Assembly: GCA_000146465.1 (NCBI GenBank)
Contig: CP001947.1
Reading direction: 5' to 3' (one strand)
Length of the DNA stretch: 64,000 nt
Position numbers and translations under genes: made by a program
Part shown: positions 14,447 to 57,920 of the stretch, one piece after another
How the letters are laid out: every line of letters starts with the position of its first letter
How positions within the stretch are numbered: the stretch's first letter is position 1
Notes under the pieces: generated by a model
Seen by the model: only the letters and a program-made list of their open reading frames with translations
Told to the model about the DNA's origin: nothing
The model's database searches: none

Positions 14447-14797
14447 TCATGCCAGTCCCTTTTCCTTTAGGAGCTCGTCCTCAACTCTTTTCCTCAGCTT
14501 CATCTGGAATCTCTCGAAATCATTGGTTGTATCCTCCTCACTAATGCTTTCTGGAATGAGCTTTCCTATCTCTTCTGGACTAAGATCCTTAATGTCAAAC
14601 GACTCATCCTCAAGGTGGAGATTAGATATAGAGCACATTTCCCTCTCTCCATCCTTCCTCTGGAGAAGTACAAAGGTTGCATCGATGATGCCAACAATTA
14701 TGCCATATGTTTTTCTTTTTTCTTTGAGTGCAGGTGTCACAATCCTTCCCAGCCTTACTGTCTTCTAAAGTTAGCCAAAAAGAAGCTCACTTACCAT
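14447..14797 (-). CDS. RPL14: 60S ribosomal protein L14e, spliced. Exon 2 is 14447..14764; exon 1 is ATG at 14795..14797.
   Basis: The ORF begins at a GTG. Upstream on the minus strand: aaaATG|GTAAGTGAGCTTCTTTTTGGCTAACTTTAG|AAGACA... The spliced product MKTVRLGRIVTPALKEKRKTYGIIVGIID...TNDFERFQMKLRKR matches eL14 (compare yeast ...LTDFERFQVMVLRKQKR). AAAAATTTGCCCTAAAA abuts the ATG. Confidence 0.8.
14765..14794 (-). other. Spliceosomal intron (30 nt) in RPL14, immediately after the ATG
   Basis: GTAAGTGA...GGCTAAC...TTTAG. An in-frame TAG inside it is removed by splicing. Confidence 0.75.
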
Positions 14798-14814
14798 TTT
14801 TAGGGCAAATTTTT
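14798..14814 (-). promoter_or_regulatory. AAATTT + CCC promoter motif upstream of RPL14
   Basis: Sense AAAAATTTGCCCTAAAA directly 5' of the ATG. Confidence 0.6.
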
Positions 14815-14862
14815 GTGTAGATTTAACCGTAGGAAAGTACACTGGTGAATCCCCAGGCACAG

Positions 14863-21532: not shown

Positions 21533-21605
21533 GGCCTCATAGCTCAATGGTTAGAGTGTCGGCCTACGGAGCCGAAGGTTGAGGGTTCGAGTCCCTCTGG
21601 GGTCG
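21533..21605 (+). tRNA. tRNA-Arg (anticodon ACG)
   Basis: 73-nt cloverleaf folded by hand: acceptor GGCCTCA/TGGGGTC, D arm GCTC..GAGT, anticodon stem TCGGC/GCCGA with loop CTACGGA (ACG), T arm GAGGG-TTCGAGT-CCCTC. Confidence 0.85.
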
Positions 21606-22112
21606 GCTGTCTTTTGTGCTTCTTTTTTTCTTCCTAGACTTTTTCATCCACATCTCTAGTGCATTGCTTCTGTATCTGCCCTGCACATCTTCATCCAACG
21701 AGTTCCACATCTTAATGAACATACGAACGTTTTCTTCTGGAGACACATTTATGTCGCCACAGATGTCGAAGAGTTCGTTTACAAAGAAAAGATATCCTGA
21801 ACACTCCCATCGCTGTATATCCCGTATTTTAACATATTTTCTTAGCTTCTTTATCGTGTTTGTATCATTGACTAAATTGCCGTCGTCACAGCCATCCAAC
21901 TCATTGGCTTCCTCAAGATCTTTATTGCATTTTTCCACATACATATTCCTCTCCTCGTCCGGCATTTCCTTCCATACAGCCATCATATTCAAGGCAGTAT
22001 CGACACAACTTGTGTATTTGTAATTATTACTTTGGAAAAAGTCCCTGGCAAAGACCGTGAATGGAGATCTCTGCTTGGTAGGCATTGAATACAAGGATTC
22101 AAAAAATTTCAT
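21564..22112 (-). CDS. HMG-box protein with two HMG boxes
   Basis: MPTKQRSPFTVFARDFF...AVWKEMPDEERNMYVEKCNKD and a second KKLRKYV...FIKMWNSLDEDVQGRY box. Start set to ATG 22110-22112, preceded by ATACCCCCGAG. The hydrophobic N-terminus implied by the track start is rejected. The last about 14 codons overlap the tRNA-Arg gene antisense. Confidence 0.6.
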   Translation of the reverse strand: MKFFESLYSMPTKQRSPFTVFARDFFQSNNYKYTSCVDTALNMMAVWKEMPDEERNMYVEKCNKDLEEANELDGCDDGNLVNDTNTIKKLRKYVKIRDIQRWECSGYLFFVNELFDICGDINVSPEENVRMFIKMWNSLDEDVQGRYRSNALEMWMKKSRKKKRSTKDSRPQRDSNPQPSAP

Positions 22113-23749: not shown

Positions 23750-24673
23750 TTAATGGGAGCAGAAGGGCTTTCTGCTGAGATTGTATATTAGTATCCCCAC
23801 AATACTTATGGCTAATCCTGCATAGTTCAAACTGCTTAGGGTGATATCTTTTGTTACTATTGCATAAAAAATAATTATCAGCTCCTTAACAATCCCTGCA
23901 ACACTTAGAAACACAACACCGGTTTCCGAAACAAGCATGAACTCTGCACATAGTAGCGTAAATGATAGGACCCCGCAAAGAGAAATATACCCAAAATTTC
24001 GTAGGGCAGCATCAAACGTGTTGAAAAACCTAGATGTTGCTATCTCCATGAGACCTTCAACATGCAAAGAAATTAAGAGGAGGAGGAACGATATGGGAAG
24101 GCAAAGGTCCCTTATGGTTACAAGAATTCCTTCCTTCCGGACTTCCTGATTTCTAATAAGGTATTGGACAAACGCCCATCGGAACCCTGCCATCAAAGAA
24201 GCAAACGAGATGGTTCCGAATCCAATAATATCAAAGCTTGTGTTTTTTATTGACGTGAGAAACACTCCCACGCCAATGGTGAATATCGTCAGAAAAAACG
24301 TTATCGATGGTTTCTCGATCCCAAGTGCAAATCCAAATAACAGAATAAACACCGGAGAAGAAGACTTCACCATTGTGTAGAATGCAAGGGTTGCCGACCT
24401 TAGAGATATGGATGAAAGGCCTATGTCTGTGGCTCCTGCAAGGGCACATGGAAACGAAGGCCCAAAGTAATTAGGCTTTGGAGCTTTTTCCTTCTGAAAC
24501 CTCAGGGCTGTGGATGCTCCGAAAAAATGGATCAGGTTCTGCATGGACGCCTTGAACAAGGGAAAGGAGAAATTGTATGTCTTTTTGGAAAGCAGAAACG
24601 ATGTTAGATATCCCAGGCTTAATGACAGAACATAATACATGAGCACTAATCCCAGTACTCTGATTCTGTTCAT
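23750..24673 (-). CDS. Nucleotide-sugar / triose-phosphate transporter family membrane protein (DMT superfamily)
   Basis: 307 aa with about 9-10 TM helices and TPT/EamA-like repeats. Confidence 0.55.
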   Translation of the reverse strand: MNRIRVLGLVLMYYVLSLSLGYLTSFLLSKKTYNFSFPLFKASMQNLIHFFGASTALRFQKEKAPKPNYFGPSFPCALAGATDIGLSSISLRSATLAFYTMVKSSSPVFILLFGFALGIEKPSITFFLTIFTIGVGVFLTSIKNTSFDIIGFGTISFASLMAGFRWAFVQYLIRNQEVRKEGILVTIRDLCLPISFLLLLISLHVEGLMEIATSRFFNTFDAALRNFGYISLCGVLSFTLLCAEFMLVSETGVVFLSVAGIVKELIIIFYAIVTKDITLSSLNYAGLAISIVGILIYNLSRKPFCSH

Positions 24674-24800
24674 TCCTCTTGAGTGTATTTTCTTTGGAGA
24701 GTCTTTTCTTCACAATGTTTCAAAGCCCCATCCAATCACATTGTTGTGTCTGGAACAAATGAATTCTGGTTTCTATAAATATGTTTTTTTTCCTAGGCCC

Positions 24801-24997
24801 TACCTCTCAAGCCAATCGGCTTTGATCAAGTGTAGTATCTGTTCTTGCCAGTGTAAGAACTGGCATTATCCGTAAGGATAAATTCATCGAATTTTTGGAT
24901 GGCAGGGTGATGTAGAGGAGCTTGAGCGCTTGCGTTTCGGCCAATCTACTTGAGGTCTGCAGGCTTCTGGGCTGTAGAGCCTAGGAAAAGCCGTTTT
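24801..24997 (+). ncRNA. U2 spliceosomal snRNA
   Basis: GATCAAGTGTAGTATCTGTTCTT at 24823-24845 matches the universally conserved U2 branch-point-interaction region (GAUCAAGUGUAGUAUCUGUUCUU). It is preceded by stem-loop I (AAGCC-AATC-GGCTT) and followed by stem IIa (GCCAGT-GTAAGA-ACTGGC), stem IIb (TTATCC-GTAA-GGATAA), the Sm site AATTTTTGG (24890-24898) and 3' hairpins. TATAAATA lies about 25 nt upstream and a T7 run follows. Ends are approximate. Confidence 0.8.
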
Positions 24998-25051
24998 TTT
25001 GTAATGTTTTCTGTTCTATTTCTTTTATCCAAGGATCCCCAACTCAAAGAA

Positions 25052-25855
25052 ATGAAGTATGCGGAGATCATCATAGGGCCTCCTGGAAGCGGGAAGTCTA
25101 CCTATGTCATGAATAAAAAGACATGGCTCTCCCATAGAAGTCCATACACAATAAATCTTGATCCGGGGAATTCCAACTCCAAGGAGTTTGACTATTCGAT
25201 ATGCTCCATCTCGTCGTCTTCGGTATATCAAGAAAAACATGATGTTGGGCCTAACATGTCCACAAAATGCATTTTAGAGGAATTTGTTACTCGTATCGAT
25301 GAGTTCTTCCGGGAGAACATTGAAGATACAGACCACTACGTCCTAATAGATTTTCCAGGACAGGTGGAATTTTTTATATCCAGCGATATTCCCAACAGAA
25401 TCATCAGATATCTTAAAAGAAATGGATATTCGGTTGTGGTTTTGAATCTTATCGACCTGGTATTCTTCTCGAACAGTCACTCGCTGGTTTCATCGTATCT
25501 AATCTCGACATTGTGCCTCTGTCTTCTTGAGTCGGCCCAGATCAACATCATCAGCAAATGCGACAATTGGAAAAGTCTTGAGATGGAGTATCCGTTGGAA
25601 GAGATTGCATCGTTGGAATGTCTAGAGGAGATTCCGAGGAAGAAAAAGTTGTATAGTGAGATGATCTCTTTTGTCCTCAACCAAGGACTGCTACTGTATG
25701 AAATCCTGGACTATGACAATCCAGACTCTGTTCTAAATCTTCAGGTTGGCATAGACAGAGCAAGCGGGTTGTTTTTTGAAGACAACTACTTTGACACCGA
25801 GAAAATAACAAGGATTCCTTCCAGAGATGAGGTTTTCTCAAAATACAAATCCTAA
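25052..25855 (+). CDS. GPN-loop GTPase (Npa3/GPN family)
   Basis: IIGPPGSGKST P-loop and LDPGN (GPN motif). Start set at ATG 25052, preceded by GATCCCCAACTCAAAGAA. The track start at 24950 runs through the U2 snRNA gene and is rejected. Confidence 0.75.
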   Translation: MKYAEIIIGPPGSGKSTYVMNKKTWLSHRSPYTINLDPGNSNSKEFDYSICSISSSSVYQEKHDVGPNMSTKCILEEFVTRIDEFFRENIEDTDHYVLIDFPGQVEFFISSDIPNRIIRYLKRNGYSVVVLNLIDLVFFSNSHSLVSSYLISTLCLCLLESAQINIISKCDNWKSLEMEYPLEEIASLECLEEIPRKKKLYSEMISFVLNQGLLLYEILDYDNPDSVLNLQVGIDRASGLFFEDNYFDTEKITRIPSRDEVFSKYKS

Positions 25856-41481: not shown

Positions 41482-41838
41482 TTAATTATGAGAGCTTACC
41501 CTGTTCGGATTGAATCCATATCTGATCTTTCTTCCTTGAGAAGAGCGGACTCTAACTATCTTGGCGTGGCACGCACAAGACACGCAGAACTGTGACTTAT
41601 AGCCCATCCTTGGAACTTCAAACACTTCGTAGATGGTTTTCTCTTTCAGATCATCAAATGAGGCCTGTTCAATGAGAGACTGAATCCTAAATCTTTTGAT
41701 TGCCTTATCCTTAGGTGTTACACTGCCGCACTTATCGCACTGGATGGGCTTCACACTTCCTCTGTTCTTCTTTGATCTCCCGTGGTTTCTTCTTTTAACT
41801 GTCTATAAAATTAGAATGCTTCGCCTATCACTTACCAT
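41482..41838 (-). CDS. RPS26: 40S ribosomal protein S26e, spliced. Exon 2 is 41482..41802; exon 1 is ATG at 41836..41838.
   Basis: Minus strand: gaATG|GTAAGTGATAGGCGAAGCATTCTAATTTTATAG|ACAGTTAAAAGAAGAAACCAC... gives [39 protein letters not shown]..., a clear S26e (compare [23 protein letters not shown]...VPKDKAIK). AAAATTTTTGCCCTTAAGA abuts the ATG. Confidence 0.8.
41803..41835 (-). other. Spliceosomal intron (33 nt) in RPS26, immediately after the ATG
   Basis: GTAAGTGA...TTCTAAT...TATAG. Same architecture as the RPL14 and RPL19 introns. Confidence 0.75.
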
Positions 41839-41858
41839 TCTTAAGGGCAAAAATTTTC
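41839..41858 (-). promoter_or_regulatory. AAATTT + CCC promoter motif upstream of RPS26
   Basis: Sense AAATTTTTGCCCTTAAGA directly 5' of the ATG. Confidence 0.6.
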
Positions 41859-57662: not shown

Positions 57663-57734
57663 GGTTGCGTGGTGTAATGGTTATCACTTCAGACTCTGAA
57701 TCTGACAATCTGAGTTCGAATCTCGGCGCGACCA
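57663..57734 (+). tRNA. tRNA-Gln (anticodon CTG)
   Basis: 72-nt cloverleaf: acceptor GGTTGCG/CGCGACC, anticodon stem TCAGA/TCTGA with loop CTCTGAA, T arm CTGAG-TTCGAAT-CTCGG, discriminator A. Confidence 0.8.
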
Positions 57735-57920
57735 ATAGCTTTTGGCCCAAAGCTTAATTGTTTAAATTTTGCTGAGGACTCTTTGTATAGAAGGATGCTT
57801 TGTTCTTTCAAAACAAGAAATATGGGCACCACAAACTTTTCGTATCAGAATGAAAACAAAATCGCTTTGAAAACTTGTTTTAACTGCAGAATAAAAGAGA
57901 AAGGAGTCTGTTTTTGAATA

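Follow-up and report, generated by a model that had tools for sequence, protein, structure and literature searches.

The gap between two divergent protein genes on chromosome VI of the microsporidian parasite Encephalitozoon intestinalis ATCC 50506 raises the question of what it encodes: an RNA gene, a piece of a protein, or the leader of a neighbouring mRNA. In the stretch of 64,000 nucleotides that was analysed as a whole (the window), the upstream gene, Eint_061240, lies on the minus strand at 23750-24673 and codes for a transporter of the TPT family, its product being exactly ADM11730.1 (Pfam PF03151, E 1.2e-17). The downstream gene, on the plus strand, starts at the ATG at 25052 and ends at 25855; it codes for a GPN-loop GTPase of 267 aa, which is exactly ADM11731.1 (PF03029, E 3.6e-32). 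It is by these exact protein matches that the window was assigned to chromosome VI of E. intestinalis. The intergenic gap between the two genes measures 378 bp. As a side observation, only one protein gene stands between the locus tags Eint_061240 and Eint_061270, so that one tag is left over; this spare tag would fit an annotated RNA gene, without being proof of it. A mechanical search for ORFs covers the gap with two plus-strand frames, one of 78 aa at 24639-24875 and one starting from a TTG at 24950, which extends the GPN frame by 34 aa (24950-25855). According to the original prediction, both frames are translation artefacts and hide an unannotated gene for the U2 snRNA.

To answer this question at the level of RNA families, the whole 64-kb window was scanned against 4227 families of Rfam, and a rescan at a permissive threshold was added. 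The comparison with the U2 family bore out the original prediction: RF00004 matched positions 24800-24992 of the plus strand with 83.5 bits, against a gathering score of 46 (E 5.6e-15), and the alignment spanned the whole model, positions 1 to 192 of 192, without truncation. Besides U2, the only matches in the window, even at the permissive threshold, were those of tRNA-Arg(ACG) at 21533-21605 and tRNA-Gln(CTG) at 57663-57734, and the permissive scan of the 64 kb returned no further ncRNA and no other snRNA, U6 included. The U2 gene can be placed at 24800-24993 (+), with a length of about 192 nt, a predicted 5' end at 24800-24802 and a predicted 3' end at about 24992-24993. It occupies the middle of the gap, with 128 nt between the ATG of the TPT gene and the U2 5' end. 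Taking into account this full-length match, the syntenic U2 found in nine other genomes and the covariation of the stems, we conclude, with a probability of about 0.97, that 24800-24993 (+) is the functional U2 snRNA gene of E. intestinalis, and its identity as U2 is regarded as demonstrated.

The motifs expected from a U2 RNA are all found on the plus strand of this segment. The invariant single-stranded core, GAUCAAGUGUAGUAUCUGUUCUU, which is the same as the Rfam consensus, is located at 24824-24846. In the DNA, the 23-nt GATCAAGTGTAGTATCTGTTCTT has a single exact occurrence in the window, and among 100 dinucleotide shuffles none contained a match to it with two mismatches or fewer. The letters of this core had been predicted exactly, but its position had been given as 24823-24845 and is in reality one base to the right. 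The core contains the branch-point recognition sequence GUAGUA (24832-24837), which is unpaired in both the MFE and the centroid folds, and it is unchanged in all ten orthologs, E. intestinalis included. In other eukaryotes the U2 core also includes the segment that pairs with U6, and the U2 side of the U2/U6 helix I (GAUC) is present in the E. intestinalis U2. Between the 5' and the 3' domains lies the predicted binding site of the Sm proteins, AAUUUUUGG (DNA AATTTTTGG), at 24890-24898; it aligns to the Sm columns of Rfam and fits the A U4-6 G pattern. Its T5 (24892-24896) is the sole internal run of four or more T in the U2 gene, and is found in eight of the ten orthologs (E. intestinalis and seven others).

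The conservation of the locus was monitored in syntenic loci from nine other microsporidian genomes, which were anchored on the orthologs of the GPN gene: E. romaleae, E. hellem, E. cuniculi GB-M1, Ordospora pajunii, O. colligata, Nosema granulosis and three microsporidia from public read assemblies. The gene order TPT(-), gap, GPN(+), RINGv(+) is common to all nine, and a SNAP gene precedes TPT in eight of them, none being called there in Nosema granulosis. In each of the nine genomes, the TPT-GPN gap contains a full-length U2, with Rfam scores of 67.6 to 85.9 bits, so that both the conservation and the synteny of the gene are demonstrated. The 5' half of U2 is 82-97% identical to that of E. 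intestinalis over these nine genomes, whereas the identity of the adjacent GPN protein goes down to 46%. The stretch from stem-loop I to the start of stem-loop IIa (approximately 24805-24850) is almost wholly invariant in the ten genomes, and the stem positions that vary still pair.

The secondary structure follows the canonical order announced by the original prediction, with stem-loops I, IIa and IIb, the Sm site and the 3' hairpins all recovered from the Rfam alignment and the folds. Stem-loops I (24807-24825), IIa (24846-24865) and IIb (24866-24881) are supported by the Rfam alignment and the MFE fold; an extended stem-loop III (24902-24960) is supported by the Rfam alignment and the folds, and the terminal stem-loop IV (24962-24992), a long hairpin whose loop is a GUAG tetraloop, by the folds. 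Stem-loop III is capped by the block GCGCUUGCG (24926-24934), which is identical in nine of the ten orthologs and reads GUGAUUGC in Nosema granulosis. The single-sequence fold has an energy of -66.7 kcal/mol, with a z-score of -2.67 relative to shuffles. The comparison of the orthologs gives a sharper view of these stems, the control being slid registers in which the 3' partners were moved by 1 to 3 columns. In the 5' domain (20 pairs, ten orthologs), 97.5% of the cells are paired, against 22-44% in the slid registers, and three compensatory pairs are observed. All cells of stem-loop I are paired (100%), with two changes from A-U to G-U; in stem-loop IIa (98.6% paired), one pair changes from C-G to U-A in two genomes, with U-G intermediates in two others; in stem-loop IIb (93% paired), two-sided changes affect two pairs. 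Because MAFFT failed to align the 3' domain correctly between genera, the corresponding test was limited to the Encephalitozoon clade and one further locus, L010. In this set, 86.9% of the cells of the 3' domain are paired, against 27-57% in the slid registers, and there are nine compensatory pairs, a count that was reached in none of 500 shuffles. Helices 1 and 2 of stem-loop III carry seven compensatory pairs inside the Encephalitozoon clade; in stem-loop IV, compensatory changes are found at two pairs of the outer stem, and the inner stem is 96% paired. This pattern of pairing is that of a structured RNA under selection, and is unlike that of coding sequence, UTR or pseudogene.

Two other pairings proposed by the folding programs were discarded. 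RNAalifold, applied to the ten full-length orthologs, predicted a long-range helix between CAAGUGU in the core and GCGCUUG in the loop of stem-loop III. Since both segments are essentially invariant, and thus without covariation, and since their pairing would occlude the branch-recognition region, this helix was considered an artefact and excluded from the pair counts. The weak hairpin at 24885-24901 that pairs the Sm site in the MFE fold was rejected as unconserved.

These comparisons also bear on the possibility that the region is protein-coding, through ORF 24639-24875 or the TTG-extended GPN frame, or forms the 5' UTR of the GPN mRNA. Mechanical ORFs do span the U2 region, and overlapping, multi-gene transcripts are known in microsporidia, which counts for such a reading. 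However, no Pfam family match was obtained for ORF 24639-24875 or for the 34-aa TTG extension, the public GPN protein begins at the ATG at 25052, and nearly all its orthologs are of similar length (259-270 aa, save for an annotation of 283 aa in O. colligata). The two frames are thus artefacts, in agreement with the original prediction. Furthermore, the conservation tracks the structure of the RNA and not the codons, as seen from the compensatory pairs and from indels that disrupt any frame, and the distances between U2 and its neighbours shift in Ordospora and Nosema while U2 itself remains intact. A coding reading of the U2 region is refuted, and we give practically no credence to the idea, taken in its wider form, that the region belongs to a coding frame or to the leader of the GPN mRNA.

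A functional U2 also needs substrates, and the original prediction had pointed out that GUAGUA is complementary to CTAAC or CTAAT elements in the introns of three ribosomal-protein genes of the window. A pattern search of the whole window for ATG-proximal GT...AG introns indeed located three of them, all on the minus strand: (i) the eL19 intron at 1821-1849, of 29 nt, with 'AT' as exon 1 and the branch element UUCUAAU, the spliced product of which is a Ribosomal_L19e protein (E 1.9e-31); (ii) the eL14 intron at 14765-14794, of 30 nt, with 'ATG' as exon 1 and the branch element GGCUAAC, in a gene whose product matches chain M4 of 7qep (ECU06_1215, E 4.7e-53) and the eL14 chain of 6rm3; and (iii) the eS26 intron at 41803-41835, of 33 nt, with 'ATG' as exon 1 and the branch element UUCUAAU, the spliced product of which is a Ribosomal_S26e protein (E 7.3e-38). 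Each branch element forms 4 to 5 pairs with GUAGUA, wobbles included, in the canonical register and with a bulged A, and the branch A sits 6-8 nt from the 3' AG in the three introns. The complementarity of U2 to the branch sites of its own neighbourhood is in this way demonstrated; a branch-site pairing of 4 to 5 pairs is normal for U2, and is weak as stand-alone evidence.

Upstream of the gene, a TATA-type box had been predicted at a distance of about 25 nt. It is read directly as TATAAATA at 24774-24781 (+), its first base preceding the predicted U2 5' end by 26-28 nt, and it is found at the same distance in nine of the ten orthologous loci, the remaining one (L008) having AATAAACA. A CCC motif at 24798-24800 (+) lies beside the predicted start; it appears as CCCTA or CCCCA in all orthologs, and the alignment shows no variation in the three C columns that immediately precede the 5' end. 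In E. cuniculi, a TATA-like box precedes nearly all ncRNA genes, independently of the polymerase expected for them, and a CCC/GGG motif stands beside the start of all ncRNA and mRNA genes, whereas A and B boxes were found by Belkorchia et al. in tRNA genes only (PMC5499648). As the TATA and CCC/GGG signals are common to ncRNA genes of either expected polymerase, the promoter sequence does not discriminate between the polymerases. A conserved TGTTTCA block, considered as a possible proximal element of U2, was rejected: in Nosema it stays beside TPT, approximately 560 nt from U2. A scan for promoters and terminators of the bacterial type, which is irrelevant to a eukaryote, flagged nothing at U2.

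The conservation of these upstream signals is relevant to a further possibility, namely that the locus is a decaying pseudogene or relic of U2, with the functional copy elsewhere. The part of the E. intestinalis genome searched was this 64-kb window, and nothing specific speaks in favour of a relic. Against it stand the core, near-invariant in ten genomes, the stems maintained by compensatory changes, the conserved promoter elements and the expression of the syntenic E. cuniculi gene, as seen by RACE (PMC5499648). The pattern of purifying selection that appears from the sequence comparisons effectively refutes such a decay, which we judge extremely improbable; our preferred reading remains that of a functional U2 gene.

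Downstream of the gene, directly after the terminal hairpin, the predicted run of seven T is present at 24994-25000 (+), and its end is 52 nt from the ATG of the GPN gene. A run of at least four T occurs at the equivalent site in nine of the ten orthologs, E. hellem having TTTCTT instead, and in Ordospora, where some 100 nt more separate the U2 3' end from the GPN gene, the run still stays beside U2. The T run is probably part of an uncharacterised 3'-end signal. In this respect, the conserved hairpin and T run at the U2 3' end constitute a small unexplained regularity. Beyond the T run, the segment 25001-25035 contains GUAA and UCUU motifs that are similar to the Nrd1/Nab3 sites of yeast, and that could equally belong to the promoter of the GPN gene.

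The original prediction went further, and took the TATA-type box and the T7 run as signs of termination of the Pol III type. The transcription and termination of U2 by RNA polymerase III would be in agreement with the T run that follows the hairpin in nine of ten orthologs and remains tied to U2 when the downstream gene moves, as well as with the scarcity of runs of T7 or longer, which occur in the window at 0.24 per kb per strand. It would also agree with the TATA and CCC/GGG signals that the Encephalitozoon ncRNA genes expected to depend on Pol II share with those expected to depend on Pol III, for which the authors proposed shared factors and a recruitment of Pol III by the TATA box only (PMC5499648). 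However, both tRNA genes of the window have only a T4 within 7 nt downstream (e.g., ...CTTTTGG for tRNA-Gln), and this T4 is exceeded by the internal T5 that eight of ten orthologs carry in the Sm site. If CTTTTGG halts the polymerase behind tRNA-Gln, ATTTTTGG inside U2 should halt it too: should T4 suffice here as a Pol III terminator, U2 would be cut short at approximately 95 nt by ATTTTTGG in its Sm site. In addition, only TTTCTT follows the hairpin in E. hellem, and the TATA box is not discriminating. In fungi and animals, the snRNAs of the Sm class are products of Pol II. Considering the internal T5 of the Sm site relative to the T4 of the tRNA genes, together with this origin of Sm-class snRNAs, we rate the transcription and termination of U2 by Pol III as improbable, and termination of the Pol III type appears more likely wrong than right. 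A related hypothesis can be issued from the end of U2, which in Encephalitozoon, Ordospora and Nosema is always a long hairpin with a T run directly behind it, and from its bare TATA/CCC promoter, which is as in genes expected to depend on Pol III: the formation of the U2 3' end could depend on the T tract, either by a switch to a Pol III that tolerates the T5 of the Sm site or by a simplified termination that the polymerases of these minimal genomes would share. This is a speculative proposal, which we think has little chance of being correct.

Taken together, these data lead us to propose that U2 forms a transcription unit of its own, about 192 nt long, contained in the 378 bp that separate the GPN-loop GTPase gene from the divergently transcribed TPT transporter gene. 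The TATAAATA box at approximately -26 and the CCC at the start would drive its transcription, most likely by RNA polymerase II, as happens for U2 in other fungi and in animals, and the transcript would end at or just after the long terminal hairpin that precedes the T run. The RNA would then bind the Sm ring at AAUUUUUGG, and its GUAGUA would pair with the CUAA[U/C] of the few, very short introns of the organism, so that the branch adenosine bulges out for the first splicing step. What we infer for the E. intestinalis U2 are its polymerase, its precise ends and its cap; concerning the cap, our search of the literature on snRNA caps in microsporidia returned nothing relevant.

According to Davila Lopez et al. 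2008, orthologues of U2 and U6 from E. cuniculi were in Rfam before 2008, and a U2 of Antonospora locustae is recorded there as well (PMC2396436). In the poly(A) RNA-seq of Grisdale et al. 2013, the annotated U2 snRNA of E. cuniculi was near background; the gene ECU06_1295, with FPKM values of 8.2, 4.3 and 8.6, is listed between ECU06_1290 and ECU06_1300 (PMC3629993). Our comparison identifies ECU06_1290 as the TPT ortholog, and no protein gene is called in the TPT-GPN gap of E. cuniculi. From this syntenic position and the absence of called protein genes from the gap, the U2 gene of E. cuniculi is very probably ECU06_1295. Belkorchia et al. 2017 analysed four Encephalitozoon genomes, including that of E. 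intestinalis, counted U2 among eight previously described ncRNAs, and validated all 18 ncRNAs of E. cuniculi, U2 included, by 5' and 3' RACE (PMC5499648). Microsporidian U2 sequences were also aligned, and their pairing with extended branch points modelled, by Whelan et al. 2018 (PMC6349667). The description of the gene as unannotated therefore holds for the ORF track, but not for the E. cuniculi ortholog, which is in Rfam, validated by RACE and present in a gene list (PMC2396436, PMC5499648, PMC3629993). The U2 gene is thus already known, both as a kind of gene and as an ortholog in the sister species E. cuniculi.

The value of the present result lies mainly in the quality of the annotation: it supplies the coordinates and the substructure of the E. 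intestinalis U2, and it shows that ORF 24639-24875 and the TTG-started extension of GPN should be kept out of the coding annotation. In at least three microsporidian genera U2 has stayed in a single chromosomal slot, so that it can be located easily in newly assembled genomes. Encephalitozoon serves as a minimal model of splicing: it has approximately 24-37 spliceosomal proteins, and its introns number fewer than 50 (PMC10158995, PMC5499648). A clean inventory of U2 and its substrates helps this model slightly, and leaves the understanding of U2 and of microsporidian splicing unchanged.

Compared with the canonical U2 of animals and fungi, as represented by the RF00004 consensus, the E. intestinalis RNA has the same order of elements (I, IIa, IIb, Sm, III, IV), a length of about 190 nt, like that of the human U2, and the same 23-nt core including GUAGUA. 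In contrast, its 5' leader is ACCUCUCAAGCC, whereas the canonical leader is AUCGCUUCUCGGCC, and its stem-loop III is extended. Stem-loop IV of the human U2 has a longer loop, which binds U2B'', where that of E. intestinalis has the GUAG tetraloop; the U2B'' part of the snRNP may therefore differ from the human one.

Within the microsporidia, the U2 of E. cuniculi is the direct ortholog, located in the same TPT-GPN slot; it shares the TATAAATA box, the CCC motif and the arrangement of the stem-loops with the E. intestinalis gene. The two RNAs are 85% identical overall and 97% identical in the 5' half, against 73% in the 3' half, where stem-loops III and IV carry compensatory substitutions; the T run behind the gene counts four T in E. 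cuniculi and seven in E. intestinalis. The U2 of Nosema granulosis, which scores 67.6 bits, occupies the same TPT-GPN gap and has a core identical to that of E. intestinalis, but it is shorter (approximately 160 nt), with a reduced 3' domain and a degenerate Sm site, AUUCUUUGG, whereas E. intestinalis keeps a textbook Sm site. In 1996, DiMaria and colleagues reportedly described a U2 of 165 nt in Vairimorpha necatrix, which is said to be without a recognisable Sm site.

A more distant comparison is that with the trypanosomatids, in which the U2 genes are transcribed by Pol III. These genes depend on upstream tRNA-like A and B boxes, and their branch-recognition and Sm regions are divergent. 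In both trypanosomatids and E. intestinalis, a T run follows the U2 gene; unlike the trypanosomatid RNA, however, the E. intestinalis U2 has a canonical GUAGUA and a canonical Sm site, the latter with an internal T5 of the kind that Pol III genes would be expected to avoid.

The gap between the gene of a TPT-family transporter (TPT) and that of a GPN-loop GTPase (GPN), at 24674-25051 in the window and in the nine syntenic loci L002-L010, houses the U2 snRNA gene in Encephalitozoon, Ordospora, Nosema granulosis and three further microsporidia. This slot is unchanged across genomes in which the GPN protein identity falls to 46%. The GPN annotation of Ordospora colligata (L006 3001-3852) is 283 aa long, all other orthologs being of 259-270 aa, and its start codon was probably placed too far upstream, the same fault as in the window's TTG extension.

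On the TPT side of the gap, a short block, (A/G)TGTTTCA, is kept in 10 of the 10 loci; in the window, TGTTTCA occupies 24716-24722 and the start codon of TPT is at 24673, a distance of 43-49 nt. Since it still adjoins TPT in Nosema granulosis, despite U2 being approximately 560 nt away, the block looks like a promoter or leader element of TPT and not an upstream element of U2. The TPT-U2 spacer of Nosema granulosis (L009 2250-2810) is enlarged by tandem copies of a unit of approximately 115 nt (GGAGTGTGCCTAAAATGAGA.CAAGAAAATGGTACAAATTTTTT...) and includes Ns, which represent an assembly gap.

Closer to U2, the stretch from the TATA box to the start site of U2 includes a T8 run at 24784-24791 (TATAAATATGTTTTTTTTCC); the equivalent run is T7-T8 in the four Encephalitozoon species and shorter elsewhere. 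Directly 3' of the T run that follows U2, the segment GTAATGT...TTCTATTTCTTTT (25001-25035) is kept in the Encephalitozoon clade and in L010, a relative aligned with it, and is absent from the Ordospora loci. Its GUAA and UCUU motifs resemble the Nrd1/Nab3 terminator sites of yeast; instead of such a terminator-like region, 25001-25035 could be the GPN promoter, a reading in favor of which a CCCC motif is found at 25037, upstream of the GPN ATG at 25052. As regards termination by Pol III, both tRNA genes in the window have a T4 run within 7 nt of their 3' end, in the flanks 21606-21645 and 57735-57774, and therefore the sequence suggests that short T runs are enough in E. intestinalis. The tRNA-Arg gene has an additional T7 at +18.

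The three intron-containing ribosomal-protein genes (eL19, eL14 and eS26) share a nearly identical string, AAA(A)TTTGC(A)CCCT(A/T)A(A/G)A, which abuts the ATG in all three (1852-1870, 14798-14816 and 41839-41857, minus strand). Their exon 1 is merely 'AT' or 'ATG', and 6-8 nt separate the branch A from the 3' AG in their introns. These genes match what has been described for E. cuniculi, namely AAATTT/CCC signals and a constrained structure of the introns. In human U2, the loop of stem-loop IV is longer and binds U2B''/U2A'; in E. intestinalis, by contrast, this terminal hairpin is capped by a GUAG tetraloop (24974-24977) in place of the protein-binding loop, which may be linked to the spliceosome of microsporidia having a reduced set of proteins.
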